From: Balanoglossus misakiensis
Taxonomy: Eukaryota; Animalia; Hemichordata
Assembly (NCBI GenBank): GCA_040954595.2
Contig: CM082595.2
Span: 7,856,317-7,920,316, forward strand
DNA length: 64,000 nucleotides
Reading direction: 5' to 3'
Below are positions 5,759 through 49,974 of this stretch, in pieces. Under the pieces are notes generated by a model. The model was given only the letters and a program-made list of their open reading frames with translations, searched no databases and had not been told where the DNA came from. Positions within the stretch are counted from its first letter, which is position 1. Each line of letters begins with the position of its first letter. A program made the translations under genes and the position numbers.

Positions 5759-5790
<32 letters not shown>

Positions 5791-6080
5791 TCACACACAC
5801 ACACACACACACACATATACATACATACATACATACATACATACATACATACATACATACATACATACATACATACATACATACATACATACATACATAC
5901 ATACATACATACATACATACATACATACATACATACATACATACATACATACATACATACATACATACATACATACATACATACATACATACATACAAAC
6001 ATACATACATACATACATACATACATACATACATACATACATACATACATACATACATACATACATACATACATACATAC
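5682..6080. repeat. Long (TACA)n microsatellite interrupted by (CA)n
   Basis: About 400 bp of ATAC repeats with a CA tract at ~5775-5815. Explains the YIHT/MYVC ORFs. Confidence 0.97.
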
Positions 6081-13815: not shown

Positions 13816-14246
13816 TATTATATTATATAATGCTACTGTCGTCGGCCATTTTGATTAGACGAGAACTCAATCTAGCGATGGTAATATACTGTTTTAGCAC
13901 GGCTGGTAGTGGTAAAACCTGAAAAAGCATGTATCAGAAAAATGTGGGGTTACCAAAAATTAATCAAAACACTGTGGATTTCACTGACATTTTTTTTAAA
14001 CTGCTCTATGAGAATATTTTACACTTTCCCATGCGCGATGCCTGTCTTGTCACTTTTTGCCATCTGCTTCATGTTTAATGCTCGCTCCCGGTCGCTCGTG
14101 TTTAATTAGTCGACACGAGTATGGTACAAGTCGTAACTTTTTCTGACGCTATTCTTTAAGAAACTTACACTGATATGCCAAAAAAATCAATTGTTGATAT
14201 AATAATAACCCACGCCTTCGTCGGTATATACTCGATTTGGGTACAC
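13816..14246. repeat. Hairpin-ended repeat copy split by the giant transposon (left part; right part 39700-39755)
   Basis: Colinear with the reverse complement of 25590-26131 (e.g. AGCGATGGT.A.ATACTGTTTTA, CACTGATATGCCA.A.AAATCAATTGTTGATA, ..TTTGGGTACA). Homology resumes right after the right TSD (ACGGCTCGTGCTAT...GAATTGTACC). Confidence 0.75.
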
Positions 14247-14980
14247 TACGGCAACCGAGAAGGCTCATGAAACAAGAATACTATTTGTGACTTTTTTTTT
14301 ACTTCTTGTTCGTTTTATTTTCTTTAACTTTGTTTTTAACTTTTAATTTCTGTTTAATTTTAACTTTAATTTTAACTTTAACTTTGATTTCCATTTCGAT
14401 TTTGATTTACGAAATAAAAAACGATCTAAATTTTGATTTCGATTTTGATTTCGATTTCGATTTTGATTTACGAAATAAAAAACGATCTAAATTTTGATTT
14501 CGATTTCGATTTCGATTTTGATTTCGATTTCGATTTTGATTTACGAAATAAAAAACGATCTAAATTTTGATTTCGATTTCGATTTCGATTTTGATTTCGA
14601 TTTCGATTTACGAAATAAAAAACGATCTAGATTTTGATTTTGATTTTGATTTCCATTTCGATTTTGATTTACGAAATGAAAAACGATCTGAATTTTGATT
14701 TCGATTTCGATTTTGATTTTGATTTTGATTTTGATTTCGATTTTGATTTCGATTTCGATTTCGATTTTGATTTTGATTTCGATTTCGAGTTCGATTTGGA
14801 TTTCGATTTCGATTTTGATTTCGATTTTGATTTTGATTTCGATTTTGATTTCGATTTCGATTTTGATTTCGATTTTGATTTTGATTTTGATTTTGATTTC
14901 GTTTTTCCAACCTTTGAACTTTGACCTTCGTGATTGTCACATGATACCTGTGGACCAATAAAAAAAGGCTTTATGTAAAT
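14247..14980 (+). repeat. Left terminal inverted repeat
   Basis: Unique 45-bp tip, T-rich block, 5 copies of a GATTTACGAAATAAAAAACGATCT module separated by TTTTGA/TTTCGA hexamers, a long hexamer array, then CAACCTTTGAACT...CTGTGGACCAAT...CTTTATG matching 38969-39045 inverted. Confidence 0.92.
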
Positions 14981-15536
14981 ATCCAGTATTGTTGAATCGG
15001 CTCGGAAATGGGAAGACAAATCCCAGCAGACAAAACTCTGGCGTGGAACGTAGCAGACAAAATACGTAATCCACTTTAAAACTTCAATTTTGGACAGTAG
15101 ACTTAAATATTACCTCAATTAAACTAATCGAAATTTAAATATCCTATATTTAGCTGGAAAAATCACGGCGCGGATGGAAATCGCCGACGAAAAATATACT
15201 CCCTTCGCGACCGTGCGTTACTTCCTGGTTAAACATTGTGTAAAGTGTGAGGCCACTGTCCTTTATCGGCAAAACAATACACATGTACTTTTAAAACCAC
15301 TGATGGTAGAAAAAAGACAGTCTCTGTTAAAAGAAATTTAGAAACATTTATAATCTACGTAAATTGGGATCTAAAAGACATTACATATTTCATTCAATAA
15401 TCAGTTTACTTGCATAAATTATATAAATGTATATGAGTACATGTACATGTACCTGTAAATTAAAATTCAACTTTGATTTTAACTTTTACTTTGATTTTCT
15501 CCGCTCACGGTTGCTTAATTTGTAGAATATGGCAAC

Positions 15537-15880
15537 TAAGGCCAAAAAAAGATCGTTTCTGGTCAGCGCGCGCATCACTTGGAAGTCCCCGCGTCGATCC
15601 CTTTTTTGCCCAACTGAACTTGTGTATAAACGTTAGCGAACTCGAAAAAGTCAGTTCGCCGCAAGATGAAAAGAAAACCTAAAATCATCCGCAGAAAGAG
15701 GAAATTCGTAAAAACGCGTGATGAATAACTGCATTTTCAACACTGATATATTGCAAAGCTGCATAGAAAGTTGACGATTTCACTGACTCTATTAAAAAAA
15801 AAAAATAATAATAATAATAATCGCGTCGCCGCACCATTTTTGAGAAATAGTCATGACCAGAAACATTTTTTTTTGGCCTA
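15537..15880. mobile_element. TAAGGCCAAAA-type MITE nested in the giant element
   Basis: TAAGGCCAAAAAAAGATCGTTTCTGGTCA ... TGACCAGAAACATTTTTTTTGGCCTA inverted ends. Confidence 0.7.
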
Positions 15881-16357
15881 ATAGTCTTAAGGAGGATCAT
15901 AATGACAGTTTTATGTTGCGACTTACAGGTGATTCTCTGACCATACGAATAGAATGATGGGCCATTTACCACATAATTTGGTAAAAACCATAACATGAAA
16001 TATTATTTAGTTTCAAACTAAAATATAAATTAGAAAATGCTCAGAGCCTTTAAACTAGTCTATGATAGTAACATAAAATTCATTGATTAACTCAAACATT
16101 TGCATTCAAATGTTAAATGTAACTGTACGGCTCTAAGGCACGTATAAGCAGTTTGTAGCTTCAAGTGTTATACCGTCCCATTGTCCCTGTCTCTACAAGT
16201 TGACCCCATCCTCGATCGGGATAGCTGAAAATCAGAGGTCAAAGGTCAAATACGATTAAAAGCTGTTTTTGGCATAAATTTGTCTAAATGTCTTTAATAT
16301 TTTGCGTTAAATCATTGCACATTTAGTTACTCTTTCACATGAAATAAAATGTGCAAA

Positions 16358-16445
16358 TCGATTTCGATTTTGATTTCGATTTTGATTTCGATTTCGATTT
16401 TGATTTTGATTTCGATTTCGTTTTTTCAACCTTTGAACTTTAACC
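16358..16445 (+). repeat. Third, internal copy of the TIR hexamer array and its inner junction
   Basis: (TTTCGA/TTTTGA)n followed by GTTTTTTCAACCTTTGAACTTTAACC, as at 14901-14926. Lacks the TACGG tip. Confidence 0.85.
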
Positions 16446-17343
16446 TTTGAACTTTAACCTTTTAACTTTAAGCGTTGGTGTTGTTGATGTGATGCGACGC
16501 GTTTCATCGTGTTTTGGATATTCTTCGCTCAGAAATATCGTATCACGTAAGTTTTTAGTGTTTTAACTTCTCTGATTTCGCATGGCGGGATAAATCAGGT
16601 GAATATAGGGAGGTCGGTACGGTGACCATAGCAAACGATCTTGTCCCGACGGCATGATCACGGGCCCGGCACTTGCTAGCTGCATAACCGTAGCGCGAGG
16701 TTTTGGCTGGGTTTGTGCATGTGGGTGGGTTGGCGTCCAACCCACAAGCCCAGGCAAAACCTCGAGCTACGGTACTGCAGCTACCCTACGAGTACATTTC
16801 GAGATTGTCCAGCTAGCGCCTCACAACTCCGCATCAAAACAGGTACGTTCAAAGAATGTTGACAGAAATGCGGGTCGGTTGAACAAACCAAACAATACCC
16901 TAAAGCTTGTGGCATATTAACTGCCTCGTAATTCATGCAAAATGCCCAAACTAGAAGTCATTTGCAGTGTCCTCAATGACCACTGAGTGACATCGACAGC
17001 AGCTTGAGTGACTTGTCTTTAGCTGAGTCAGGGTGTCGCTACGAGTATGGCCAGTAATTATTAGCTATACGTATCGCCCTATCCAAGTTTCAGTTACAAT
17101 TTAAGTTTTATGTAAGAGTGTTTTGTTTTGGCGCGATTGTGAATGTGACCGCCATAGAGCGCCGTAGAGAGCACCAGATCCGAGCAGTCCCTATGACATG
17201 TGGCAAACCAGGCAAAACCTTGAGTAGCTCTGCCATGCATTTACATTTGTCATTGCTGTTTACCTGGGTCTAAAAATAATTATGGAAAGAATCATTTTTA
17301 ATATTCTTTTTATATCCTGTACAGGTGTTAAGATAGTATCACT

Positions 17344-20300
17344 ATGAAAATTTCTGAGTACATAGAACATTTGGTTATAAGAGGAAAAGATAATAAAACT
17401 ATCCTCAAGTATCTACAGAAAGATCATGGCATTTCCTGGAGGTAATGTATATATCTGCCAATTGTAGTACCAGGGTATTACCTAAAAATCATAAAGAGCA
17501 CTAAAATGGCCACTCATTGCTTTTAACTTTGAAAATGTCTTTTGGGTCCACAAGACATGACATACTACATATACACACATGTATGCATGTTGATTTGTGT
17601 CATACAAACCAATATGGCTGCTGGACGACCATTTTCTTACATTTTTTTCATGTCATTTCTATGTCTGAACTGATTTTATGCAAACTTAGTACAAGGACAA
17701 TGTAAACAGCTAGAAAGCACATGAGATTTACGGACAAGCCTGTAACATGCCCTGAAAAATAACCTCTGCCACAGGGCATGTAAAATTGGTCAGATTTAAG
17801 TGTAGTATGCACAGGCCTGAATCAGACCTTATGGTACAGGGATGTATACAGTAGGGTAATTTCTGACTGTATCCAGTCTTGTGTACACAGGACTGAATCA
17901 CTGGTGTACGTATAGTGTTGTGTTAGTGGGCCTGATTCAGTGTCTGAAAATTCACAAGATTTCGGGGGTGTAATATTTTCAGGAAAATGTGCCAATTTTG
18001 ATGATAGAAGAGTGAACAGTAATATTTGTGTTCACACTAAAAAAACTCAGACCCTGTCACAGGTCTGTGTTCACAGCACTGTATACAGTCCTGTACTATA
18101 TACTGGTATTTTGACAGGCATAAGTTTCAGACCCTGTCATGTTATGATGTGTCCACAGCACTGTATACAGTAATGTTCTCACAGTACTGGATGCAGACCA
18201 GTACAGCAGTCCCTGTATCGGCAGGCTACATGACTCACAACTCCCAAATTGCTTTATTTTACAATTTTTTTTTTCATAGTTTGAGTACATTGAAGAGAAG
18301 ACTGTTAGTATTTGGTATAAAAAGACACCAGAGAGTTAGCCCTGATGATGTTCGAATGGCAGTTAAGGTCAGTAACAGTAATATAAGATGCAGTGATATT
18401 ACATGACATTATGAGGTTAAAGCTCAATATAACTTGTTTGTTGGGTCATATTGCAATGGGCCATGTCACGTGAGTCGAAGACGAGTTTTATGCAGCCAAT
18501 GACCACACAAGTGGTGACATTACCATGCGAACAGGTGATATTGAGCTATAACCTTTTTATCATATTGAAATACCGTATTTTTGGCAATTTTTGGTCGTAA
18601 AATCTATTTTTCTGAAATTGAATAGCAAATTGCTTTGAACTTTGCTTTGCAGGTTCTTATTGCTCCCTGGTGGAAAGTGAAAATACAGTATATATTTGTC
18701 AGAGCATAATGTATAATGTGATGCTTCTTTGTCTCCTCAGGCAGAATTGCAAGGGCCAGGCAGATTACTTGGGATTAAGGCAATGTACAAGCGCATACGT
18801 CAAAAGCATAGAATTTTCGCCACAAGGTAAATGTGATCAAGTTATTTTTTGTGTTTCAATTACCCCTTGAATTTTGAGTATAGTTACTATGGTAAAAATG
18901 TAGTAATTTCACCACAGTTTTCTTTTTAGGTTCAACCCTGACACCTGAAATCAATATATCTTGGGAGACTTATAAATTAGGCTCTGGCTGTCCTTCTCTC
19001 CACAGCCACTACTCAGACATGCATGAACCAATTTCAGTTGGGCTTGGCATAACTCGTACTACAAGGACAATGTAACATATGGTACATAATTGTACATGTC
19101 AATTTGTTTTTGTGACACAATCCAATTTCGCTGACAAGTAGCCATTTTCTGAAAAAAAAATTCATGTCTAGAGCCATTATTTCGAATGGCCAGTCTAATT
19201 GCATCATACAGAGGTTGTGTTTAGGCAAAAAATATGCATAATTGACACCAAAAAAAAAACATTTGACGCAAAAATCTGATGAGTGCATCAATATTGACAC
19301 ATGTAAAGTTGCTACATCGTTTGATTATTGAGGTTGACGCACTGTTGAGCAGGACAAAAATTGCTACTGCGACCTCTGATCATAGCATACATTCATATGT
19401 ATGTCAATATGCTTTGTGAAATTCTCGAATGTGGCCACCAGGTGTCATCCAGACGGCTGCCATTTTCGTTGAGTGTTTGATCTGACATGATCTTATGAGA
19501 TTCATACTTTCTTGAGGAAGTTTGTTGTCATAGCTGTAATAAAAATAAAAATATGAAACATGGGTGTTCAGATCCTGTGTCCACATTGCCTTCGCTGTTT
19601 ACCATCAAGATATTGTAGATACACAGGCGCACGTGTGCTGGATTGGCTAGCTGTTAACAGCCATTGCCAGCGATAGCTGGTATAGTATGTCCGTGGCTGA
19701 GACACAGTGACACTGACAGTCTTCTGAAATGCCAAAAAATGGCTAATCAGTTTCTAATTTGACAAATTGAATTCCGGTGTCATTAGTTAAAATGGCTCAT
19801 GCTTTAAAAAGCCTACTGCTAACACAATAGGTATACCTGTTAGGGTAAATACATAGGAAGGTGTGAATGTTTAAGGTACTTTGACTACAGGCATGGGAGT
19901 AGAAAGGTGGTTAGTTAACATATAATGCACCATGCTGAACATATATGAAAGTGGTGCCAAAGTTGTGCTAAGAAAGTGCTGGCACACTGTCAGCATTTTG
20001 CTATGTTTTACTGTATCCGTGTGGTAGGTAGGGTGTGTATGTATGTATGCATGGAGATAAGTAGGCATATATGTGTTAGTGAAGGCATACATGTTCTTCT
20101 GATTATAAATTCTGAATTTACTTATGCGGAAAAAAATACATGCAATATTATTTACATTGGCATGGCTGATAATTTCCTTGACTCGTCTTTTGGTTAATAG
20201 AGATCAGGTGGAAGCTATCATGGTAGAGCTCTGTTATGATAACATGCTGGAAAGGCGAGGAGGGCGACTTATTTGCCAGCGCCGGAAGTACTATTCAGAG

Positions 20301-23300
20301 GTGTAGTTAAGTATTTAAAAATTTCAGATTTGTAATTTTTAGCTCTCATTTTCCATTATTTAGGGTGACAAGAGCTTATGTGATAAAACAGCGTCTGTCT
20401 GTGTGGCTTTCTTACTGTTTGGCTGGCTGTATGTATGTATGTATGTACCTGTATGTATGTATGTAGCAAGTAACTGCAAAAACTCGAGAACCGTTGATAT
20501 CTTCATATTTGGTGTAGAGATTCATAATGAATGATTAGCAATCAATAACTCAGAAATTGTTGGTTTTGATGAATTCATATTTTATTTATAGTTATTTAAG
20601 GAAAAGCCTATAATACACATTTCTTCATTTTGAATTTATCTATATTTTTAAAAATGTTTGTCCGAAATTTTACTTCTTGTTCTATACCTTTGAAATTTTG
20701 TTTGCAGATTTTTAGGGAAATGCTTTGGAATTCTTCGAATGTTCTCATTTTCATTACTAGATGAGAGACATGTGATACCATCTTAAGCTTTCCTTTCCGA
20801 TATTTTTTGTCCTTTGACCCTTCTAACTCAAAACTTCATCCTTAAAGTGCATGTTATATCAACAGTTCGTGCTTGTTTTTTCAGGGCCCAAATTGGGTTT
20901 GGCATATGGATGGGTATGATAAATTGATGGGCTTCAGAAAGTCTGAATATCCATTTGCTATACATGGGTGTATTGATGGATTCTCTCGGAAAATTATTTG
21001 GCTGAGGGTGTACAGCACAAATAACAACCCACATGTTATTGGAAAATACTACTATGATGCTGTGTCTGAAAATTTATGTAAGTCATTTTATGTTTAGTAA
21101 TTTATGTGTCAGGTTGTAAAGTTCTCTTCGAAAGTCAAAGGCTTAAATTTTTTGTCAAATTTTGTTCAAGGCAACTACAGATTATTCTCTTTTACATTGT
21201 AATTAATATTGAGAATAATAATTGTTCACCGTGCAAAATTCTGAATTAGAGGGCCATATTGTCTTACAGTTGACATTCAAAATGGCTGCCAATGTCTGAG
21301 TTAAACCATATGGAGAAATATTAAATAAACGGTTTTTATGAAAACAAGTTGGTGAACGCAATATGTTCTTCTTTCTTTTCAAAAATACTCACACAATTTA
21401 TTAAAGAATGGAAAGATATCATTATTCTGAAAATCTGTTCCTGAGTTGCGTACTACCTTAAAGCAACATGCAGACCTACCTCATATGATGCGTATGTTTT
21501 TTTCTCATAATAGGCTGTCGGCCTAAGGGATACACCATTAGATCTTGGGGGGGGGGGGGGTGGTCAGAAGTGAATAAAAAAATATGCGAAGAGAAAATCA
21601 CGAAAAAAAAATAAAAATCAGACCCATTAGCCCCCAAAAAATACAGAAACCATAAATGTGACAGAAAATAAATTTGCAAAATGCCACTTAAATCCGGTAT
21701 TTGATATTAAAGTGTGAGATTCTACCATCAAAGTATAATTTTTCGGCGCGACCTTCGGTCACATTCAGTAACTTTTAAACTTTTGATGTTTTTCACGCTA
21801 TTTTTGATCTGTAGAATAACCGCAGTTTCTTATTCTACTCATGTCTTTTTGATGTAGTGTGCCCATCTCGAACTCGTTCGGATCATGGAACTGAAATGGT
21901 GGAACTGGCTGAATCTCAAATGTTCCTTAGAAGAAATCACACAGATGTGTATGCCTTTGACAAAGCTCACAAGTATGGGTCTTCAACTTCTAACCAGGTA
22001 CACATGCCTAAACTGATTTATTTTGTTGCAATATTATCAAATATGGTCCCTGTTGCCAATTTGCCTTCAGTTTTCACTTCGACATGCCTGAGCAACTTTC
22101 ATCAAGATTTTGCACAATGACAATATACATATGCATGGAAGATCATGTTTCTTTATAAGATTCAATATTGCTTCCCGGTAAGCTCCCAAGTACATGCCTA
22201 GCAATAGACACGCTAGAACTGAATATGCTGCAGCTGGAACTTGGTGCAAACATAGTGTATTAAGTGTATACTGAGGCATGTACATGCAGACCAATTTCTT
22301 TCTTCACCACAACTATAGCTATAAGTTCTACACATCTGAATTGATTTTCTAAATCAGAGTGAACCACTGAAACAGAAGAATGGAAACGAAGTTGTAGAAT
22401 GAATAATGTAAATTATTGTATACTCAGTTGTTATTTGTGATGACGTTTGAAAAAAAAGCAGGACGTAGGTTTTTTGCGTAATGTTATTGATAAGTAAATT
22501 GTATATATGCTTTTGTCATTAAATCTATAGTGTATTGAAAGCTGGTGGGCTCAACTAAGAAAATCCAGTACACAGTACTGGAGAGAAGAATTTAAGGTTA
22601 GACAAATATGTGTTTAAAAATATGATGAATATTGGTTTTAAATAAGACCAAAATGATTGGCAGTTTGTTATAAATTTTTCACCTCCATAAAAGTTGGACT
22701 GGCCATCATTGTGTGTTGTCTGTCTGACCATCAGCTTTTTGCTTTTTCTCAGAAGTTTTTCCTGCTGTAAAAATGGATAGCAATATGACTGTAACTTGTG
22801 TAAGGTGGTGCTGTATCCGTCATCTGTGCACATATATACATATGTATGTGTGTGTGTGTGTGTTCAATACAAAAAATAAAGAACTGCTGCACATTTCCTC
22901 TGGGGATTTTGTTCAAATGAGAAGGCGTCATTAGTAAAAAAGAAATTTATTTGATGATTGGTAAACAATTCCTCCAGAATGTGTATAATGAGTGACAGCA
23001 TGAAATTAAGCAGCTCATTTGAAAAGTTTTAAGTTTGGCAAAAAATGTCATTAAAACTGCAGCACCCTGAATCAAACAGAACCATACTGTCTATAAATTG
23101 TCAGATGATGGGCTTTTGTCAATTCACCTTCGATTTTCCTTATTCAGACATTAAAAGACCAATCACTGTATGATTCAAGTAATCCAATAGATAGGTAAGA
23201 TGTAATTTTTCACACAAATCTGCATTTTATGTATTGAACAGTCATATTTATCATTTGCAATACAAAGTTAGGGTATCTCAACATATAAATTTGATGACTT

Positions 23301-24625
23301 GTATGATACACTTCATTCAATTTGTAGGCCTGATTTAAATTTTATAAATATAAAACAACCCTACTAGATAAACATGACAACAGTTGTAAAATGCGCATTC
23401 AGTTTTGGACTGCTGTGACTATTATAAATGCAAGCTCCAGTGTTATAATAGCATGTACATTTACTCTGCTATATGGCATATTATTTTTGAATTTATCTTC
23501 CTGTTCTCATCTTTCATTTTCAGAAAATGCCTCATGTATGTATACATGCCCCTTCTTCAACATGAATTGACAGAATTTGCTGATGAATGGAACTCGCATA
23601 GAATACGTGCACAGAAAAGGCAACAACGACCACATGGTATTCCTGAAGATTTATACAAGTTCCCAGAAGAGTTCGGTAAGTATAATGCTGTTTTGGAGGG
23701 CAAGATTTGTATGGATTTCTGAGATAAATTTCAACTATATCGGTGAATGTTAACTTTAACCTTATTAATTTATGTTTAGGAAATGTTTAATCCCACAGAT
23801 GGCCACTCAAATTGAATGTTTGAATTTAGTGTTCCTACATAATGTTTATGTATGCCATGACTTATGTTGAGATCCAAATTTATTGCTAAGTTGAAAAAAA
23901 AATCTCCATGAATGAAACTTGTTCTAAAGATATTAAAAGTTTGGCAAAGGAAATTTACAACCTGAATCATCTCCAGTTCAACAGAACAGTGGTATTCAAG
24001 ATACAACTCTTAACATTGTTATCTCGACTTTCCTTCATGTTTACTTACCTGTTGCAGTTTTGTGTAAATGGGTTAGTAGTATGAGGGATAACCGTAAATG
24101 TTTTCATTGCAGTTTGAAAGATGATGTTTTACTGATAACTGACAAATAAGTTGATACACATCTGTACTATCATAGTGGATTAGGTACAGTGGTATATGTA
24201 CCACATGACAAGATTCAGGGACATTACTACATCAACAATGTTATAGCATGGCCTTTGTTTCATTTGCTGTGCCACAAAATGTACATAAATAGCTTTGTAT
24301 CATAAAAGTGCCTTTTTTGCCATTCCAAATTTTAATGGCTAGTATCAGTATGTCAACAATGTAAAGTAAACCATGGGATATTCTTAACACTTTTCCTTTA
24401 ACTTACATTAACACAGATGCACAGGAGATGGGGTTTGTTGTGAACAGAAGAGATTTGGCAACATTGGCTGAACGAGGAGGCTATGATGAGCAGCTGCCTC
24501 ATTATCTGTCTCCGTCTTTTGTACAAGATTCAGAAAATGAAGTGTACAGCGTTTTTGATCACATTACTTTGAATAATGCCAAACAGGTGTACATTTACTT
24601 GAGGTACCTGTTTTCCCAACATTGA
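17344..24625 (+). CDS. IS3/integrase-family DDE transposase, 10 coding exons, 392 aa
   Basis: GT-AG exons 17344-17441, 18280-18367, 18741-18826, 20201-20300, 20885-21077, 21858-21997, 22531-22596, 23148-23194, 23524-23675 and 24417-24625 sum to 1179 bp in frame. N-terminal HTH/Clr5-like HGISWSLSTLKRRL; ELQGPGRLLGIKAM; catalytic GPNWVWHMDG(D), IHGCIDGFSRKIIWL, PSRTRSDHGTE(D), NQCIESWW(E); WNSHRIR; PHGIP. Confidence 0.88.
18413..18555. repeat. Hairpin repeat in transposase intron 2
   Basis: AGGTTAAAGCTCAATATAAC...GAGTCGAAGACGAG...GTGATATTGAGCTATAACCT inverted arms, with a loop resembling that of the 25590 family. Confidence 0.5.
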
Positions 24626-24865
24626 TGTCTGTATAAGGTGGGTTCATGCTACCTACATGATTTTAACACAACTGACCAAAAATCAGTGTGTTGTAGTAGT
24701 TGTGTTGGAGCTGAAAAGATGTAGGACAGTGAGAATTTTATCTGTAAATGACAAAAAGACAAACACTGCTGAATGGAGTAAGTCAATATTTAATACAGTT
24801 GTTTAGATGGCAGTGAAGGTTCTTAACTGAGAAAATGGAGTGAAATTGAGCATTCATAGTCTGCA

Positions 24866-27800
24866 TCAAGCGGGATCCTCCGACAACAGCACAGCATCAT
24901 CACCTTCGCTTGAAGACTTAAGTGTAACCTGCAGAATCACAACAACCATCATTAAAATCTATACTCCACAAAATATCACCCAAAACTTGTATTACAGTGT
25001 TGCCTCAGGCCATTTTTTTTGCTGTAAGCCATTCTGGCTAATCTGACTTAGCCAGATGATGTGCTAGCTGGCTCATGTTTTTGTATTTGCTCAGTTTTCT
25101 ATTCACAGATAAGAAAAAAAATATACTGTATATATACATACACACTTCCCCAGCCTATATGATAAGCTTCTATTGTCATGTGTATACAGCAAATGGAAGC
25201 TAAATTAGTTGAACAAAGGCACTTACCTCTGATAACGTATACTTGGCCAAAGATGGCGACATAACTTGTAGAGCTGGATAAAACAAAAAGTAAAATGTTC
25301 TCTGTATTTCCATGGTTCATGTAGACATTTCACCTTTTCATTAAATGTTATGTTATGAAAGGTAACTAGTTACTACATTACTGTTTTTTTTAACTTAAAC
25401 ATGCATACATACATACACTGATCCCACAAGGTCCCACTCGTATAATATGGAGCTAAAACTAACAGAATCATGTTGAAATTGTCAATTATTTTGAGAGGAA
25501 AAAAATATTTGCAAATTAATAATAATATCAATATCACAGAGCCAAGTGCTTTCTAAGGGTTCATTTGTATATTTGAATGAAGTATTTAAGCAATAATCCC
25601 CGCCGCAGGCGGGTATACACGAGATTTTGGTACAATTCGAGACATATAGCACGAGCCGTAAGGCGAGTGCTATATGGTAGCGAATTGTACCAAAATCTCG
25701 TGTATACCCGACTGAGGCGGGGGTTATTGCTATTATATTATATCAACAATTGATTTCTGTGGCATATCAGTGTCGTTTTCATAACGAAACAACGTCAGAA
25801 AGAAAAATTACGATCGTGAACCAACATGGCGACGATTAATGTAAACACGAGCGGCCCGAGATCGAGCATTCAACATGAAGCAGACGACAAAAAGTGACAA
25901 AAGTGAAAAATATTCAGAGCAGAGCAGTTCCAAAATAAAACGTCCGTAAATTCAAGTGTTTTTATGTTATTTATTTGGTTTAATCCCGTGCAACTGTGGT
26001 TTAACCACACATTTTCCCTGCTGCATGCTAGTTCAGGGGCAAGTTTTACCACTGCCAGCAATGGTAAAACAGTATTTCACCATCGCTCTCGTCCAATCAG
26101 AATCGCAGATGGTAGCATGATATAATATAATACAATTTAGGTGTATAATACCTCACCTGGTAATCTTATCATGTCACAGTATCGTGAACATATGTGCCCA
26201 TTGGCGAACGGAACAATTGCTTCTCTGGCGCAATTATCAACGCCAAACACCCTGTTGAATGCAATTTGTAGGTAAAAATTTGCTTTAAAAAATAAAAAAC
26301 AAGCGCCCTAGTGGCCAATAGAGATCCACTGTAATATTGACATAACATCATAGTTATACAGGAAACATTTGTTAAGAATTTTTGCATTAAAACTATCAAA
26401 GTTGACTCAGCTTTTTTATGGTGATTACTGTATAACCCCCCCCCCCAAAAAAAAAAGACACAATATCCTTACAGACCTAATTTTGTCAATTTAAAGGGGA
26501 AATCCGTCGTAGCTGATTTCTACATAATTTGGTAGCTTTGATGTCACTCTTTCAGAAAAAAACATATTCGCCATGTATAGGTCGCGCGATTTTTTACAAA
26601 ATCTAGGGAAAGTTGGCAAAATTTCCAATATGGCGTTTACTGTAATTTGAATCATGGGAAATAGTCAATGTACATTGTAAGTTACTGTAAATAAAAAAAT
26701 GTTAATTTTTTATTTAAAATTGCTTGTACTTACATTGCGTTTTCGTTGTTGTCAAGTAGCGACCAACTTGCTGGAGCTACATCAGTCAGTCGGTAACCAA
26801 CTCCTACATTGTCAAAAATACAAGGTTCAAAGAGTTGGCAGGTATTAAATTCTACATACATTTACTACATAATATGTTGCATGGCCAAATAAATTAATAC
26901 CCCAGCCATTTAAATAAAGAAGGAAATTGAAGTCGTTCATGAATGTCTTTGTGCCAAATTTGGATGGAAAAGCTATTAATAGTTAACACCTAAATAACAA
27001 TTCTGCCCTAAAATGACCTATATATTTGGTTGAGGGATTCTTGGGATATCAACTAAGAACGCATTAATATGAAATGGGCTAATAATTAACATGTCCACCA
27101 AAATTTCATTCTACCGGTATAAGGGTAATATTATAGTATAATTAAACTGTTTGAAAGTTATGTCCAATTTGTTCAAAATCACAGTGTTGCATTTTAGCCA
27201 TACACAGTCACAAGTATTTCAAATGGTATGCTAAACAAAATGAATTATTATGAAAACCCACCTTGAAGGTCTGTGATGAGGAATCTGTTGTCAAATTTGT
27301 TCATCACCCAGTGTGCGAATGTGCTCAATTTTTCTCTTATCTCCATGTCACCACCCAACATGGCACCCATGTTGTTCATATATTTAATATATGGTCCAGG
27401 CAAAAATTCTTCCAAAGTAAAGTACTTCTCTCCTGCTTTAAGCAGGTAACAAGGGATAATGCTAGAAAATACAAGTAAAAAATAAGCAGTTTTAAAAATC
27501 ATTTTGCTTGAATAATGTGAAGAAATAGAAAATTTATGTGAAAGAATTATTACCAATGACTTCCATGTGTGAACATGGAGTATGGATTCCACGAAAACAT
27601 GCGTGAAAGTATTAAAAGTCTGGCAATTTTGTTTTGATACCTCATATGAAGTCAAGTGCATCTTTGAAAATTGGGGGAGGGAAGCAGTACATGTGGGCCT
27701 TCGAAATAACGAACATGGTTTACATTGTTAGGTGCAATGAGTATGAGTGTATAATATGGCATTACAAATGAGCTGATGTGATGCAGTCTCACAAAGTTGT

Positions 27801-30800: not shown

Positions 30801-33800
30801 ATCATTTCTCAGTCGACATTTATAAAATACTAGACTATTTTACCAATGTTTCCATTGTATACTTTAAATCCGGCCAGCAGCACACTATCTCAAACACTTA
30901 ACAAATACAATGCAATTGAATTCAATTTATACATTATTACTTTGAATTTCTCTAGTTACACAGGCAGAAGTATTTTACAAAGTTTAAACTTACTTGTGGA
31001 CTTGGGGATACAAGCTTGTTTGACTTCCTGTATTTTGAAAAATAAAAAGGGAATTACATGTTACTGTTGACAGCATGGGGACAATAACATCAATGACACT
31101 ACAGCTCCTATAGCCAGCACAAATTATGCATGAGTTCTCAATACAAATGCACATTGAATGTTGGACACACATATACTGTTTATGTCACTACCAAAGTATT
31201 ATTGATAAATTAGCAAAACTAACTGTTGCTTTTGTTATGCACTTAAATTGCTGATTTAAACACAAGCCCAAACAGACTGACACATCTCAAGATACATGCA
31301 TTCAAAAGACATGACTTAGGGAAAACAAACCTTTGTTGTGATACATAAGAGGCATGTCAGTGATTGTCAAGAACCTGTATACCAACTTTCAAGCTTGACT
31401 GACAGGCTGTTCTGGTGAAGATAATTTGTTTACCAAACAAAATAATGCAGAGGCCAGTATCAATCTATCAAATTTGCCTGAGTAGAACTTAGGAAAAAGA
31501 GACTGTTTGTACCAATCATCTAAAATAGCTTTAACGACATTGCACTCCAGCTTGTATGTAAATAATTTACACACATGACTGACATATGTTGTTCTCATAT
31601 TAGTAAATCCACAACAAGCGTCACTCAACCAGAAAGTCTACTTTTTTAAAGGTATAAGTCATCTGTAGCCACAGATACCACAGAAATGAAACCACAGATA
31701 TCTTATGACAAAAACCTGCAAAAATTGTCCCCAAAATACAATATTGCAGTTTTCATGAGAGTTGTCACACATTTGACTTCGATCATCCCTAGTGACCTGA
31801 ATACTGAATATAAAAGTTGTATAAACAGTGGATTCTGAGAAGAAGTCAATTGTTGACAGTTGGACGGACAGACAATAGACAATCCACCTATCTGTTAGGC
31901 TCCACATCACTGACGACAAAGCTAATAGAAGGCAGTTTACCATTATTTATATTTATGGTCCATTTTCTGTTCAAAATGGGAACCATGCAAAAGATACAGA
32001 CAACACACAATGAAATGATTGTATACAAACCAAAGTATGCTTTTGCATAGTATCTGCACGTGCATGATGTGGTGCTGACAATGTCTTCTTTTTTTCATTC
32101 TTTTGTACAAGTTGTGCCAGCTCTGATAGAGCAGAGGATGCTACAAAAGATTAAATGACATTATGAAATATCAGACATGCTCAATTTATAAATTAAGAGA
32201 CAATGTCATTGTAACAGTACTTGGCTTCAGTAGAAAAATCATATTATTACATAGTTATATCTTTAACTTTTAATTTTCAACACCTGTTGTTCTTGCACAG
32301 TATTAAGTAAAACAACAATGACAACATGTGTGATTGCCAAATGATCTTAATTAATATGCCAGAATCATGATTCCTGACCTCAAACTGAACAACCTGATAT
32401 TTATATACCGTAACGTTCAACTTCCTCACTATGATTAAATAGTCCAGAACAATGGAATATTTGTTTCATTGCTGCCCTATGCACCACCTCAAACAAATGT
32501 TTGTTTGTTTGTTTGTTTTGTTGTTTTTATTGGGGGGTTACTACCACGCCAACGAAAAAACATAACAATTATTGCACAATCACCACATAATATTTATTAT
32601 AGACATTTATTATTTCTTAAGAAAAAGGCCTATTCTGGAGAACTCACCACTGATTCTTGACGACTTGCTGGAAAGTACACTGTATAAATTTGATGAGAAA
32701 AAAAGAAAGTCAACAATATACATAAAAGTCAGTTATGGCCCTGAAAGTGTCACAAGACAAATTTGATATTATAAAAATCTCCTTTGTAATGGGGTTATAC
32801 GATTGCTTGAAACAAAACACATAAAGCCCCTAGGAATATACTTTGCAAACACCTACTTACACATTCATTCACTAATTATTTTCATTGAGTATACTGGTAC
32901 ATACATGTGATATACCAGTAGGGGTACAAGTGGCTTGCTGAAAAATTATTTTACATTTCATTTCAAGCTATGTATGAGTCACAAGTATAATATATCTAGT
33001 CTTATTTCATACCAAAGTGAACAATGATATTTAACTACTGCCTACATAAGAAAAGTGGCCATCAATATATAAAATCTTAGGAACAGCTACAATAATCAGA
33101 CTCCAGTAGCACATGTGTGTAGATGTTAATCGTGTAAATTTATAGTACAGTTGCAAATTCCATCATTAGATCATATTGTTAAATAAAATGATGTGTGTAT
33201 GTACATCTAAGTACATAATCCTTGTACCAAGTTTTAATGAAATCATGATCAGTCAAGGCATGGCTAAGTAATGGCTTTGGAAAGACAGAGGTATAGACGG
33301 GTGGTGCCCAATCCATACGTCTCCATGGACTACGACTGTGGGGACTTACATGTACAAATCAAACTTGGATCACCACTAAGGTCCTGAGTATCAAATGTAT
33401 GAGCACTTAAATTTCTAAAAGAAATCATTTATACATAAAAATGACAAGATTTCAAATTTCAAAGCAATCACACAAGCTGTTTTGACCAAAAAAAGCAAAA
33501 AATAACCCCCAAAAATACAAATTTGAAGATTTTGATCACAATTATATATACCAACTTATATCAAAGCTGCAGATCAGTGGGTTCTGATAAGTGTACACCA
33601 CCAATAAACATGTCTGCCGATTTCAAATGCAGCTGAAGTCAACATTTTCAAGCAGTTAACTCATAGAAGTTCTTCGTGTCAATATTACCTGAAAATACTC
33701 TTTGACTGTTCAACTTCATGTGGTTGAGAATGAGATGGACCAGCGCAACTGTCTTCATCCATGGAAAGCTCCTATATACAAGAAACAAGGATATGCAACT

Positions 33801-36800
33801 TCAAACAATATCAAACATTACTTAAATAACCCAAGCAACCTTCATGGCTAAAGACCGGTTAGAGATATGAACATAATTATGTGGAACAATAAGACTGTCC
33901 GTGGAGACACAATTCATCAGTAAGCTAAAAGATAAATGTGGACATAATTTTAAAAATTCAGCAAAATGATGGAAAGCTGCATTGAACATATGATTTCCAT
34001 ATTTTTCTGACATCCTTTACACAAACATGTCAAAGCAACCAACCTTAGATGTCCTCGAACCAGTATGCTAAATGCAAAAAAAATGCCAATGGTATTGGAG
34101 CCCAGCTGATCAGTATTGTGCCATACTGACTCATATCAAACAAGCACCAGGTCTCCAACTATTATGGTTGCTGACATATGTAAAAGTAGTTGAAAGGTCA
34201 CCCCAAAATTTGGAAGAAAAAAATTTGGTCCAATATTGACACACATCAACTGAAAATCAAGTCTCCGTGTATTATAGATGCCGAGATATGCACGAATCAA
34301 AAAAGCAAAAAAAAAATTATTACCCCCCTGAGAAGAAGAAAAAAACATTGTTGGGGAAATTTTGAAGCCATAAAAGGCTTCTTTTTGCTCCAAAAAGGGA
34401 GAAATGATGTAAAAAAACTGAACAGATCCTCCATGACCCTGAATTGAACTCTGGTGAAAATTGTATCTGTGTGAAGTGGTTTTTGAGTTATCATCCATAC
34501 AAGGATTTTATATCAGCAGTGGCATTATGTCCCCATACCTTTGCAGGAATTTGGGGGCATACCGTAATAAAGCCAATACTGAAATCATGTAATTTATATT
34601 ACTGGGTTTTAGTTTATGACAACTTTTAATCTTTGGAAATATGTGGCTAATGTTTACAAATAATGACTTAATTGTTTTACTCACAGGAAAGTAGAAACAA
34701 AATGAGCTTCTTGTCATAACATGCTGATCCTCTTTGTATTCTGGACCAGTGGTTCCACCCATTACTTTTGCTTTCCTTATATTTGTTGGATTGACTCGAA
34801 TCTTGAAAAATTCAAGACAAGCTACCTTGATGTTCAGTAGCGATAAAGGTCTATTAAAAGGAACCTGGGAAAGTAAGCCACAGCACAGCAATTAGATATA
34901 AATTAAAAATGTGCTACAGTAAGTCATGAGAAATGACACAATTGTAAAACAAATATCTTAATGACACTGACTGATCCTTTTAGCTAACACTGCTAAACAT
35001 ACACAGGTGTTAATTTAATTCTGGTCATCCGTTCCTGACATATCGTGCCAAAAGTCAAACAGTCACACAATACAATAAAATACAATGTTTAAGCAATAAA
35101 ACACCCCCAGCCATGGTATATCACGAGATTTTGACCAGTTCACGACATATACGCACGAGCGATAGCGAGTGCGTATATGGAGTTGAACTGGTCAAAATCG
35201 AGTGGTATACCATGGCTGGGGGTGTTTTATTGCTATTATATTATGCCAGTATATTGAAACTTTGCATAAAACATTTTAAAAAGGCATTTTCTTTAACTAT
35301 GATATATGACTGTGGTATATGGCTAATATATCACGGTCACGTGTCGTGTCTCGACCAATCAAATAGCGTGATTTACACCATCAATATACTGGTATAATAT
35401 AATTACATTTTTATCATAATTTTTAGATGGAATAAAAATATTACTCCTAGGACCCTGAAAATCAAATTGCGAAGAGCAATCAGAATAATGATTTCTGACC
35501 AAAAATTTAAAAAAATTGCCCTCCAAAATATAATATTGGTATTTTCCCCATAATATTACACATCATACTGATTTCTGCGAACAATTTTTTTTTGACATAC
35601 ATACATACATACATAGAGACAACAGATGTAGACTTATCCAATAAAATATCAATGGTACATGTACATACACGAAATGGGAGCTAAAAATGAAATAATCCGT
35701 TGCTTACCAATTGCTTTAAAACATTATCAGCTTTGCGATATCTTCTTCCATCAAATTCAAGTTTCGTTATGGTAAGATTCTGAGGGAAATGTAAGAAGTA
35801 CATAACCGGTTGATAATAATGTATTTTACCAAATGGAGGATATATGATTTTTGCTATGGAAGTCACTTGGTTTGAACACACACTCTGACAACATAACCTA
35901 GCCACTGAAATAAATGGACAAAACCACTCAGCCATGCGTTTCAAACCCAAAACAGTGGCATGGTCACACTGACTGTGTCAGAAGTTACAACTCTGAACGT
36001 GATCCAATGACAGTGTGTCGACAAAGCAAGCACACAAAGACAAAAATACTATACAAACAAACTCGGTAAATAGTACCTTAAAGCTTTTAACGAGCTTTTG
36101 CCTGTATTTATAATTTCTCTGTAATTCTATGATATAGTCCTACTCACTGGCACTGGATCAAACAAATCATTTGCAACGTATATCATTATTGGTTCTAGGA
36201 ATTAAACAAATGAACTAGTAATTTATACAGTTCTGCTGTGATATTTAGTGCATAGTAACTGTAAGTCAAATATCAAGGCTAATGATTTTTTTTTTATTCA
36301 GAGGATCAACAAGAGCAAATTCATAATAACAGGCTCTGCTATGTTGTTTGAGAGCATTTGGCCTAAATTACAAACTTTAAATCTTCTCGAAATTACAAAT
36401 TACTTTTTTGCCACTATAAACCAAAGTCAATATGGTGCCAAGTTTGAACATACTGTACCTGTGGACATCTCTTCCCTTTTGCCGGTTTTCTCATTTCAAT
36501 TTGTTTTTTTCGTATTTTCTCCCACTGTCCTGTAAGTCATAAGTTGCCATGGAAACTAATTAACAATATTTATATCCTACTCAAGTACATTTGCAACTTT
36601 GTATTTCACTGACAAAAAAACTGCTAAATGCAGATCAGTGCGATCATATCACTGTGTCCACGGAAAAGAAGCTTTGTTTATCAAAAACAGCAAAAATTAT
36701 CACAAAATAGCATATTGCAGATTCATCACAAATTGAGCAACCTGAATTTTCTATATTTTATCATCCCTAGGGACCTGCATAACAAGTAAGAAATGTGTGA

Positions 36801-37707
36801 ACAGAGGTATTAAAGAAGAAGTCAATGTAAGAGTTGTAGGACGACAGATGACGATGGACAATCCATGTAAAAGCTAGCCCAAAGTCACTGGCAGCAGAGA
36901 TAATAAATGTCATACCTTCGTAACTGTCTTCACTTTCCATGCCTAAAAAAACAACATACATTATTAAACACCTATTGCTGCAATAACCTACATTTCGTAT
37001 GCTGATCTATCATACAATACAATTGTACATTGCTGTACAGTACACAGAGTCTAAATAAGGCTGACATGTTCAAGTGAGTGCAAAATGTTAGAGGTGAGTG
37101 ATGCCACTCCTATGCTATATGACAGGTCAAACCCATAGGTCAACAAACATAGTTTTATTAAAACGACCTGGTAGGGTGTGTGCAGAGTACCAATCATTTG
37201 AAATTGATTGGTTGCTGCAAAGCAAAAGACGTGGACTTATATGCCATATGGAACATTCCTTTCTCAGTGGGTAAGGTATTTGATTCAAAGAATTGGAATT
37301 AGAAGTGGGTCTAAGTTTCAAGAGTAATGGATATAGCTTAACTCATTGCAGCAGCTTCATCCTACCCTACAATACCTGAGTACACTCACCTCATGGAGAT
37401 TCATGATTACTCTATAGTGATGCTATGTCTCACATATCAAGGTGGTAATACAATACAGTTTAACAGTTTGTACTCTAAATGATCATATTTTTGTTGGTGT
37501 AACTTTTTGTGCACCAAAAGTACATTGAGAAAATATTGTGCAATGGTATGTATACCTCTTAGGACATAAAATATTCAGGCACTGATTTAGAAAACACAAT
37601 CATATGTCAGTTCAAATTTTTACTGCTCAAACACAGTGTTTATGATCAATATGTAATGCAGTTTTATATCATTACTTACCTTTACGCTTTTCTTTCGCTT
37701 TAGGCAT
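24866..37707 (-). CDS. Alpha-kinase (eEF2K/MHCK/TRPM7-kinase family) domain protein, 17 coding exons, 508 aa
   Basis: Minus-strand GT-AG exons 37707-37680, 36942-36916, 36194-36148, 35779-35708, 34864-34685, 33771-33689, 32679-32648, 32140-32031, 31027-30994, 30165-30106, 28964-28669, 28013-27931, 27461-27262, 26803-26734, 26251-26157, 25273-25227 and 24928-24866 sum to 1527 bp in frame. Motifs IGVGGMRSAY, YVLKEH, EVQGQ, TLEEFLPGPYIKYMNNMG, STFAHW, LITDLQGVGYRLTD, FGVDNC, HICSRYC. The kinase-domain exons are secure; the small 5' exons are less so. Confidence 0.85.
25590..26131. mobile_element. Hairpin-ended non-autonomous repeat in a kinase intron
   Basis: 140-bp stem-loop at 25590-25730 (GCAATAATCCCCGCC...CACGAGCCGTAAGGCGAGTG...GGCGGGGTTATTGC) plus a body ending CCAATCAGAATCGC...ATATAATATAATA. 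Confidence 0.75.
35092..35402. mobile_element. Hairpin-ended non-autonomous repeat in a kinase intron
   Basis: Near-perfect stem-loop at 35092-35234 (AGCAATAAAACACCCCCAGCCATGGTATA ... TATACCATGGCTGGGGGTGTTTTATTGCT), body ending CCAATCA...TATAATATAAT. Confidence 0.75.
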
Positions 37708-38325: not shown

Positions 38326-38560
38326 CATCAAATTGCCATATATGCAGTCGAAAATGGAAACGCAAATGCAGTTCGATATTTCAACAAACGTCTAGAAAAG
38401 CTCATCAACGAAAGCACTATTCTTGGCATGGAAAAAAAGGACACTGCGAACGTTATCAGCAGAGAAAATCGCGCACCCACTAGGGCAAAATCTCGACAGG
38501 CAAGTCGAATCATATATAAAACAATTCCGACTAAGGCCAAAAGTCGTGTGATTAGCTTCG
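38326..38560 (+). pseudogene. Fragment of a pogo-like transposase N-terminal HTH (Brinker-DBD-like)
   Basis: Translation HQIAIYAVENGNANAVRYFNKRLEKLINESTILGMEKK...YKTIPTKAKSR resembles the YAxENGNxxAxRxF...ESTV motif of pogo-type transposases. Preceded by an in-frame stop; no DDE region follows. Confidence 0.55.
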
Positions 38561-38968
38561 CGTCCACAGGACGTTCTATACGTAACGGACGCGGACGCGC
38601 ATTTCATTTTCAGTATCACACAGTCTTGGAGCAAGACTACCATTGCAGCTGCAGGACAATCCACATTTACACGGCTACTACGCTACGTACTACTGTAGTA
38701 CTACATACTATTACTATACTAGGATGCGCCAAGTTGCGAGCAAGTTCATATCAGTCGCCGTCGGGACAAAATCTACAGACAAAGCCTTCCATAACGATGG
38801 TTTAAAATGACGGTAGGTGGGATGTTTTACCCCCGGTCAAGAGCAATCAATGAGAGATAATAAAACAGTAAAACCTTACGCGTACGATATTTCTGAGCGA
38901 AAACTCTCACGATGAACACGGTATCGAGTACGATGACAGCATATGCATATCCATGCAGCAGCGATGGC

Positions 38969-39699
38969 TATTTGCATAAAGACTTTTTTGATTGGTCCAC
39001 AGATATCACGTGATAGCTACAACGGTCAGAGTTCAAAGGTTGAAAAATCGAAATCGAAATCAAAATCAAAATCGAAATCGAAATCAAAATCGAAATCAAA
39101 ATCAAAATCAAAATCGAAATCGAAATCAAAATCGAAATCGAAATCAAAATTCAGATCGTTTTTCATTTCGTAAATCAAAATCGAAATCAAAATCAAAATC
39201 AAAATCAAAATCAAAATCGAAATTCAGATCGTTTTTCATTTCGTAAATCAAAATCGAAATCGAAATCAAAATTCAGATCGTTTTTCATTTCGTAAATCAA
39301 AATCAAAATCGAAATCAAAATCAAAATCGAAATCAAAATCAAAATTTAGATCGTTTTTCATTTCGTAAATCGAAATCGAAATCAAAATTTAGATCGTTTT
39401 TTATTTCGTAAATCAAAATCGAAATGGAAATCAAAATCAAAATCTAGATCGTTTTTCATTTCGTAAATGGAAATCAAAATCAAAATTTAGATCGTTTTTT
39501 ATTTCGTAAATCAAAATCGAAATGGAAATCAAAGTTAAAGTTAAAATTAAATTTAAAATTAAACAGAAATAAAAAGTTAAAAACAAAGTTAAAGAAAAAT
39601 TCAAGCTAAGATTTTAAGTATAAACTCAAAAACGAACAAGAAGTAAAAAAAAAAGTCACAAATAGTATTCTTGTTTCATGAGCCTTCTCGGTTGCCGTA
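38969..39699 (-). repeat. Right terminal inverted repeat
   Basis: Reverse complement of 14247-14980, with 7 AGATCGTTTT modules and an extra ~30 bp near 39600-39630. Confidence 0.92.
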
Positions 39700-42600
39700 G
39701 TACACCTCGCTCGTCTAACGGCTCGTGCTATTTATCGTGAATTGTACCCAAATTGTACCCCCCTTTCGAATATGCCAGTAAGCTATATCGTTGCATTGTT
39801 ACGTTATGTAGCCATTACTCAAACATGCTTGAATTGATTCCATTTCAACATAAAGGACTATTCAAATATGCTGCACATTTACAGACATTTTAAATAATTG
39901 CATTCACATCGAGTATGAGTGCAGTGTACTATATATGATGTACGTACACGTATGCTCTACACGATCTCTAACTTTCAATAGAAACATTTTCAGAGCCAAA
40001 TGTCTTACATGTTATTTCCTTCTTCGATATTTTCTTTCACTGTTGCCCATATTGATAAATCAATACTATGCCGATTTGCCGATGGCGATGACTTGTTTGA
40101 TCTATAATGATATCGCATTTAATTCTGCAAATGTTGTTATTTAAAAATGATATCTATCTTTCTGAAATTTAAATAAACAAAGTAGTATGTAAAATATTAA
40201 CATTTGCGTATTTGTTAGGATACCTACACATAATCAAAATCGTGACATGAAAAATGACGATCATTCTATAGTTAGTGTATTAATTGAAACTACAATAAAC
40301 GAACTAACCATTGTAAATTTATCACAGGAATATATGGTTATGGCAAAATAACCTGATGCATGTAAAACAGACAAATAACCTTACATTTAAACTAATTGGC
40401 CATAAGTTCAAAACGTCATGATATTGACACAATAACTTTATACACATCGGGAATACATACTTGATTCGTCATTATGAGATTCATGCACAATCGTTTTGAG
40501 ATACGATACACGTGCAACTATGACGTCACTTTACATTAGGGTAACTTAGAGATCAATGTGATCTATTTTTTTATAATTTACATTACATGTATGTGTGTAT
40601 ACCTTCTGTAAACAAAGGTGCCGCAAAGCGCTTCAAGAATCCAATGCTAAGTTTAGGTAGCTTGTACATGCATGTGCTACGGTGTTAGCAAAACATTTTA
40701 CCATGGAGCGTCATTCTTCATTTGAATGAAAGCAATTTTCAGCCTTTGGTAAACACACAAACGCGCACTGAACTTGCAAAATATCTAAGAGGAAACTGCT
40801 CATTGCCTGCTGCCTTTCTGCAGATTATTGTCTACACTACTTGAAAGGCCAACATTAGCATCACGAGTCATGAAGTATAGCAACAGCGGATTTGATGGTT
40901 TGTGGTGTAAATATTCGGAAGGTGGTTTTCATGCCGCTATAACACGCGTGTATTCTAATTCAATTCCATGACCATGCGAAGTCGAAATTAATAGCATCGA
41001 GCCGTACGTGCATAAAAGGTCAGATTCTCGTGATACGAATTGTGCAGATAAATGGTGAATCTATCGATGCATTACCAACTTAATCAAGATAATACACGTA
41101 CCTACATGAGCACAACGGTGTAATTCTTTTGTTGGACAAACGTGTTTGGCAGCAGTGGCGTCTATCCTAAACGACGCCATAAGGTATTTTACTTTGGAAT
41201 GTCTTATTTTTCCAACACGTAACATTAAACGCTTCTGACTTAAAGCATTTCGTGGGATTACCCCACCTCATCATACGACATGAGTGTTAAAAGCGAATGT
41301 CTTAAACATAACGAAATACAAAACCTTACGATATACATATCAGCACGAGATTGTTTTGAAATACAATACAATGTTGACATTACCTCCATACACTGTAGCA
41401 GGTATGTACACAGTAAAGGTTAGCTACGACGTTCATCAATATCGCGAGACATCTGCCAATGACGTTAACTCTTCATTGCGGCGCTGAATATCCCCGAAGT
41501 GAAGGAGAAGCTAAATTCTCTCTGATATCACGTCCGTTTCATCAGTTATGGATTTGGAATCGCAGCATGTCTCCTCTGGTTCGGCTTCACTGATCGTGTC
41601 TCTCGGCTCCCCGATGAAATAACACAATTTCACCCAGTAACTCTCGACTACATACGGTGGCACTCTCAATTCGGCCGAGTTGCCATAACGACATGGCTTT
41701 AAAATACCCGGATGGTCTTTTTCTGTTTTTCTTATGACGCTTTTACGTCCAACAGCATAGGCCCTGGGGAATTGTAATGGTATGTTTACGGAATAGAACT
41801 GTGTCAGCTGAGCGATTGGTATCGTCGGTATCGACTTGATGTCCATTATATGATGTATAACAGACTGTTACTAAATATTGTCACAAAACATAAAATATGA
41901 AATAATATAGTGATGTCTATGGTCGTCCAACGCTGCCGCTGATAAAATACTGGTTATTTGTTGTTGTAAGTGAAATATTGAAAAAAAATATACGAACTAA
42001 ATTAAAATGATTAAACTTAAAACACAAAAAGGAATAAAAAAAAAACTAAGTGAAAGCATATTACATTTCAAACATAAAAATATAATAAAATTGAAAAATA
42101 ATTTAAAACAAAATCAAATCAAATCAAATTAAATTTAAATTTTAAAAACTTGAAATAAAAATTACACTTGAAAAAAAAACTTTCTTTCGGGCCTATCCCA
42201 TATACCATAATGCAGTGCGACATGCAGTTGCCTTGTGCGTGCGAGCCGGCGTCGTACTTCCATGTAAATAGATCTTGCCTGTATATGGGGGCTAGGATGA
42301 ACCGGCAACGGACACGTGGCGGTAAAACTTTCATCGACATTTTGGATTTCATCCCCTAGATCGACGAATCCCACACCACGCGGCAGGACAACTGGTAGGC
42401 GTACGGTTAGGTAAAATGGGTAGTGGGGCCCCGGAGGGCGGGCAGGTCCTACTTGGCTATCATCGATTTAGAGGTCCTCGTGAACTGAATCACCGTCCCA
42501 GCACCACTGTGATCTCGTGTAGGCTGCAATATGGTACCTGGAAAGTTGGGCGAGGACAAACTGAATGGAGTGTAGCCAGCTTTAGGGAGATGCTGGGCAC

Positions 42601-49915: not shown

Positions 49916-49974
49916 CTCGAGCCTGTTTGTTTTTCTGAATTTTATTGTATACTAGGAGATAAAGCACAATACAG

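Follow-up and report, generated by a model that had tools for sequence, protein, structure and literature searches.

A large IS3EU DNA transposon of Balanoglossus misakiensis with a predicted alpha-kinase gene convergent to its transposase

Why should a DNA transposon carry a gene for a protein kinase? The question is raised by a 64,000-nt stretch of the Balanoglossus misakiensis genome (GCA_040954595.2, contig CM082595.2, positions 7,856,317-7,920,316 of the forward strand; hereafter the window, whose numbering is used unless another locus is named), in which an element of 25,453 bp (14247-39699) encloses two convergent spliced genes, one for a DDE transposase and the other for a predicted alpha-kinase. 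Judged from its sequence, the element is an intact IS3EU/GingerRoot DNA transposon, and we lean towards reading the kinase as an accessory enzyme of the element itself, inherited with it and predicted to control transposition through phosphorylation. The pairing of the two genes is already in print for fungi; the window holds a large, intron-rich animal member.

The target-site duplication (TSD), the terminal inverted repeats (TIRs) and the associated repeats are as follows:

14241-14246: left TSD, GTACAC (sequence comparison)
14247-14985, + strand: left TIR, a TACGG tip with hexamer and 43-49-nt subrepeat arrays
16358-16447, + strand: inner end of the TIR repeated in part, immediately 5' of the transposase leader (blastn match of 93% across 90 nt)
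25585-26132: nested hairpin repeat, resembling a miniature inverted-repeat transposable element (MITE), in a kinase intron; its family is that of the host repeat interrupted at 14246/39700
38965-39699, - strand: right TIR
39700-39705: right TSD, GTACAC (sequence comparison)

A preliminary description of this locus had claimed a perfect 6-bp TSD, tips identical over 45 bp and TIRs of about 730 bp, all of which were recovered. The TSD lies directly outside TACGG (starting at 14247) and CCGTA (ending at 39699), and the tips are identical over 54 nt (45 nt plus nine T), beyond which the arms differ by an additional T and an indel of 28 nt. Aligned over 739 and 735 nt, the TIRs are 80% identical and consist mostly of the hexamers and 43-49-nt subrepeats. 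About 1.4 kb (14986-16357) separate the left TIR from its second partial copy, an interval that has no counterpart in the right arm.

With the flanks joined around a single TSD copy, the sequence aligned across the junction with the hairpin repeat copy at 25823-25624 (173 nt of the query, 73%, E = 5e-27). Since the joined flanks match another copy of the host repeat, the element is a genuine insertion into that repeat. The perfect TSD, the identical tips and the two open frames together point to a young insertion. A second MITE-like hairpin repeat is nested in a kinase intron at 35088-35244, and Rfam gave no match within 14000-40000.

The sequencing-run contigs compared with the window covered the left part of the element. 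One contig of run X1, possibly the window's own source run, equals 17617-25615 with no differences and bridges the end of the transposase gene and the last kinase exons. Other contigs represent diverged copies of the left arm (X1; the runs are again possibly the window's own source). A joint from 17644 to 22002 occurs in two runs from a single sample and would be explained by a relative with an internal deletion of 17645-22001, and a joint at 15286/15881 points to left-arm variants without 594 bp. None of the run contigs shows a second full insertion of the element. Contig depth was 31 in the core (no differences), 48-55 in the flanks (about 1-2% differences) and 215-290 in the left arm in X1, which is no measure of copy number and hints only weakly at an insertion in one haplotype together with several relatives of the left arm.

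The left-hand gene encodes the transposase:

17344-24625, + strand: IS3EU DDE transposase, 392 aa, with D133, D197 and E238 (spliced model, Pfam, homologue alignment)
exons 1-5, + strand: 17344-17441, 18280-18367, 18741-18826, 20201-20300, 20885-21077
exons 6-10, + strand: 21858-21997, 22531-22596, 23148-23194, 23524-23675, 24417-24625

The stop-free 392-aa model proposed earlier was reproduced exactly from 10 GT-AG exons, with no internal stop in the frame. Pfam PF24764 (rva_4) scored above its cut-off in two of the four exons scanned. With one exon as the query, a homologue search yielded 147 proteins from 154 candidates; those with names come from cnidarians, molluscs, a sea cucumber and a fish. 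The model aligns without breaks to P0008 (43% identity over 310 aa). The D133, D197 and E238 columns are invariant or nearly so among the homologues, and the first D, at residue 133, lies inside the 100-300 range set for IS3EU/GingerRoot. No HHCC motif was seen on inspection of the model; a PDB sequence search with the transposase profile gave no match, and no relative was found in the viral contigs searched with the transposase alignment. Three EukProt gene models with the Em prefix (P0031, P0038 and P0040) combine the PF24764 transposase with a protein-kinase domain of the conventional type (PF07714/PF00069) and are possibly annotation fusions.

The element thus has the features of IS3EU/GingerRoot: TAYGG..CCRTA termini and a 6-bp TSD, as defined in the available part of PMC10045372, TIRs longer than 30 bp and an integrase-like DDE transposase without HHCC. 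Its termini, TSD, TIRs and PF24764 transposase bear out the assignment to IS3EU made in the preliminary description. Such elements have been reported from fish, cnidarians, a beetle, an acorn worm and fungi (available portions of PMC10045372, PMC11934779 and PMC6839031). TA..TA termini, the 6-bp TSD and the integrase-like DDE transposase are common to all of these and the window element, whereas GingerRoot elements, as far as they are described in the text available, have TIRs of 100-150 bp and lengths of 3.9-12.9 kb, compared with about 739 bp and 25.5 kb here. The word 'kinase' is absent from the main text, so far as available, of these same three papers.

The right-hand gene runs on the opposite strand:

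24866-37707, - strand: alpha-kinase gene, 537-aa model, 18 exons (P0122-guided splicing)
exons 1-6, - strand, high to low: 37707-37680, 36942-36916, 36529-36459, 36139-36077, 35779-35708, 34864-34685
exons 7-12, - strand, high to low: 33771-33689, 32679-32648, 32140-32031, 31027-30994, 30165-30106, 28964-28669
exons 13-18, - strand, high to low: 28013-27931, 27461-27262, 26803-26734, 26251-26157, 25273-25227, 24928-24866
34685-35779, - strand: two exons of a conserved N-terminal domain, aa 64-147, predicted to be ubiquitin-like (aligned to P0122)
26157-28964, - strand: catalytic-domain exons (Pfam, homologue alignment)

An open spliced alpha-kinase of 508 aa had been claimed. The gene is indeed open, across 13 kb, and its length is not fixed, because skipping unsupported exons of the 537-aa model yields other open variants of 462-528 aa, one of them of 507 aa; exons 1-4, 8, 9 and 18 have no homologue support. 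Residues 65-164 and about 222-518 are backed by P0122, P0123 and P0125, the latter two carrying the support to about aa 518; residues 1-63, 175-222 and 518-537 have no such backing. A full HMMER scan returned 24 homologous proteins; of the 10 inspected, the three that are named are from Saccoglossus kowalevskii. P0122, P0123 and P0125 represent two Saccoglossus paralogues, 62-64% identical to each other, and the alignment of the window kinase with P0122 (37% identity, 430 columns) spans both the N-terminal and the catalytic domain. In their annotations the three are TRPM7-like or vwkA-like; two sit on 13-kb contigs, and the start of P0123 falls at an exact exon boundary of the window kinase. 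A word-based search with a kinase exon gave no match and one with P0122 returned P0122 alone, and the viral contigs searched with kinase alignments contained no relative.

The exon at 27262-27461 (- strand) matches PF02816 (E = 2.7e-12; 47.6 bits against a cut-off of 21.3). The model contains K320, E353, E398, D444, Q446 and D454 and the zinc ligands H430, H489, C491 and C495, whose roles we take to be those of the corresponding TRPM7 residues. The profile match and these residues place the protein in the alpha-kinase family, and kinase activity is predicted. Among solved structures, the nearest is the TRPM7 kinase domain 1ia9 (E = 3e-16 with P0122). The catalytic and zinc-ligand residues are shared with TRPM7 and eEF2K (PF02816), whereas the window kinase has no recognised channel or calmodulin-binding region, differs by its predicted ubiquitin-like N-terminal domain and, like the Saccoglossus proteins, has a G-x-D-N motif in place of the glycine-rich C-lobe loop. 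In the Atlas feature clusters, useful as a lead only, the top three for the kinase domain are alpha-kinases of 250-310 aa and the TRPM-domain cluster ranks 23rd; Basidiomycota, Cnidaria and Chordata are the commonest phyla of the top clusters. A short frame in the first kinase intron (38326-38460, + strand) presumably resembles the helix-turn-helix start of a pogo-type transposase, and Pfam gave no match for it.

Each gene is preceded by a leader next to a TIR or TIR copy:

16485-16693, + strand: predicted promoter or non-coding first exon of the transposase gene, carrying a GTAAG donor and mirroring the kinase leader
38719-38941, - strand: predicted promoter or non-coding first exon of the kinase gene; mirror of the transposase leader

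The earlier proposal that the kinase leader mirrors that of the transposase holds: 16485-16693 (+) and 38941-38719 (-) align with a score of 109, against a mean of 33 and a maximum of 60 in 300 shuffles. Each leader has a GTAAG donor and an acceptor lies just upstream of each start codon, which makes a non-coding first exon probable for both genes. The convergent genes end in stop codons 240 bp apart, at 24625 (+) and 24866 (-). Maize MuDR likewise consists of two convergent spliced genes, mudrA and mudrB, whose promoters lie inside the TIRs or beside them (available part of PMC3440606), but its transposase belongs to a superfamily unrelated to IS3EU, and mudrB is described there as having an unknown function and is not a kinase.

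Closer counterparts are found in fungi. According to PMC12730594 (Kojima 2025; section 4.1), all TET+ IS3EU families encode a transposase and an alpha-kinase in opposite orientations, with a TET/JBP gene between them. These families, IS3EU-7_PSt, IS3EU-3_PCor and IS3EU-6_PSt among them, share with the window element the 6-bp TSD, TAYGG..CCRTA ends and opposed gene pair. Unlike them, the window element has no TET/JBP gene in the 240 bp between its stops, has an animal host, 26 coding introns and subrepeat-rich TIRs of about 739 bp, and extends over 25.5 kb as against 8.3-12.9 kb (15 rows of Table S1 in the same available part). The suggestion that the combination might be new is therefore not supported, the pairing having been printed in PMC12730594.

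The available text of PMC10853768 describes the ancestral IS3EU as a two-protein element, and that of PMC3520738 presents multi-gene IS3EU derivatives (Intons) whose acquired host proteins are suggested to regulate transposition. A link between IS3EU and a kinase does not appear in the available portions of these two papers or of PMC5753468; it is PMC12730594 that draws it. We found no published description of a kinase in an animal IS3EU; Repbase and the Kojima 2019 review, which were outside the search, may hold one.

The second-gene position is occupied differently in other relatives. In the half of a metagenome collection that was scanned, the transposase alignment picked out 436 related stretches, and the best 80 of these were retained; being intronless and ranked by likeness to P0032, these mostly short loci sample other subgroups. 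In 24 of the 80, a convergent HECT ligase gene lies downstream of the transposase on the opposite strand, and the other orientation was seen in none. Where flanks reached 3 kb or more, HECT was present in 14 of 16 loci, and in 15 of 16 such families after near-copies were collapsed. The HECT profile was seeded by 14 open reading frames (ORFs) of these loci; independently of it, Pfam detected HECT in 22 of 51 hand-picked locus ORFs, 15 of them above the cut-off. The HECT-bearing loci, and two of them that are complete compact elements, are:

HECT-bearing loci: L008, L009, L013-L015, L019, L020, L028, L034, L039, L042-L044, L049, L051, L055
HECT-bearing loci, continued: L056, L062, L065, L071, L072, L075, L076, L079
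L043, 55-5166: complete compact IS3EU element, TSD AAAAAG
L055, 3215-12608: complete compact IS3EU element, TSD GATTGT

These two were the loci, among five examined, in which a complete TACGG..CCGTA element with a 6-bp TSD encloses both genes, and the transposase of L043 is open and intronless. Zinc-ribbon, ubiquitin-like and UBX-like parts often precede the HECT genes, and the N-terminal domain of a HECT partner was modelled with a mean predicted local distance difference test score (pLDDT) of 83 and is confidently predicted to have a ubiquitin-like fold (best Z 9.1, root-mean-square deviation 3.2 A, 87 residues aligned). Two long-flank loci gave no HECT match; one of these, L040, has a full endonuclease/reverse-transcriptase ORF of a long interspersed nuclear element downstream of its transposase (2967-6776, - strand). 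No published description of the IS3EU HECT gene was found, Repbase entries and the Kojima 2019 review again being outside the search.

The N-terminal domain of the window kinase may weakly resemble ubiquitin-like domains. The Atlas model of P0122 residues 1-95 has USP7-UBL, RA and Crinkler-N as neighbours at template-modelling scores of 0.55-0.59, all below the naming bar, and AlphaFold with the single P0122 sequence gave a pLDDT of 30.

How might such an element work? DDE transposases bind the TIRs of their element, excise it and insert it elsewhere with, in this case, a 6-bp stagger. The window transposase would cut and paste the element whose ends and TSD are observed, and the mirrored leaders probably drive both genes convergently, much as in MuDR. 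IS3EU elements would have a slot for a second gene whose product is an enzyme that modifies proteins: an alpha-kinase in this element and in rust fungi, a HECT ligase in many relatives. Through its N-terminal ubiquitin-like domain the kinase could dock on the transposase or the transpososome, and by phosphorylation it could set the activity or stability of the transposase. That the kinase is directed at transposition through such header docking and phosphorylation control is the most speculative step, and we put it forward tentatively, as something short of probable. A broader version, in which fungal and animal IS3EU share a swappable slot for a post-translational effector, driven by the mirrored promoter, with a ubiquitin-like header in front of an alpha-kinase or a HECT ligase, the header docking on its cognate transposase and the kinase switching transposition, appears doubtful.

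Several results weigh against an inherited kinase that regulates transposition. No alpha-kinase was found at any of the 80 related loci by tblastn, phmmer or a 21-sequence profile, and among them there is no second animal locus with such a kinase beside the transposase. The fold assignment of the kinase N-terminal domain is itself weak, and hhalign gave a probability below 1% for its match to the ubiquitin-like domains of HECT partners. In a quick tree of 62 rows (every one of the 24 HECT loci, 12 from the remaining 56, 25 out of 120 proteins and the window), the window transposase forms a long branch outside two HECT-containing groups; its placement is unsure, so the order in which kinase and HECT were gained cannot be read from it. 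The kinase had been regarded as a core component rather than casual cargo. This view survives in part: the kinase has probably been inherited along with the element, because fungal IS3EU have the same convergent pair, and it is not core to the whole superfamily, because none of the 80 loci has it and 24 have HECT in its stead.

An inherited IS3EU kinase might also act on host proteins, in chromatin silencing, translation or stress and immune signalling, and so shield the element. We consider this unlikely on balance, though a serious candidate. Host alpha-kinases do act on eEF2, myosin and innate-immune adaptors, and the partner slot holds different enzymes, a kinase or HECT. The Crinkler effector header is also among the Atlas structural neighbours of the modelled N-terminal domain, below the naming bar. 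A parallel is offered by Kojima's view of TET/JBP: fungal elements add these genes, and transposon copies of them are thought to counter methylation silencing (available part of PMC12730594). On the other hand, the mirrored leaders suggest co-expression with the transposase, which is nevertheless compatible with both targets, and no histone mimic, PHD finger or like module was noticed in the 537-aa model, with Pfam run on single exons.

Capture of a host kinase gene by one element lineage, as neutral cargo, seems improbable. It would suit the absence of the kinase from the 80 related loci, its 17 host-gene-like introns and the acquired gene fragments that GingerRoot elements are reported to carry (available part of PMC6839031). 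However, across 13 kb the kinase frame is open throughout; introns are just as abundant in the transposase gene; the leaders of the two genes are homologous; fungal IS3EU show this very pair in this orientation; and the kinase has none of the channel, Sel1, Ig or vWA domains of the host-type Atlas clusters. Run contigs checked the left half of the element, which leaves some room for an assembly artefact or for two unrelated repeats that happen to be nested about a host kinase, but either is highly implausible given the perfect TSD, the empty site restored on joining the flanks and the X1 contig, possibly from the window's own source run, that equals 17617-25615 with no differences.

Outside the element, several overlapping frames of 138-280 aa at 48301-49951 (- strand) have no Pfam match and possibly belong to another mobile element.

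IS3EU is a widespread superfamily that has barely been studied, its structure and function being called largely unexplored in the available text of PMC11934779. A transposon-encoded kinase is unusual, and the fungal pairing has been noted in print in two sentences. Because the copy described here is intact and looks recent, it provides a usable substrate for asking whether the kinase controls the transposase or disarms the host. Our observations also suggest that, in the annotation of invertebrate genomes, some gene models for stand-alone alpha-kinases and HECT proteins may be parts of transposons; if the swappable-slot reading were true, many stand-alone 'TRPM7-like' and 'vwkA-like' invertebrate kinases would be transposon genes.

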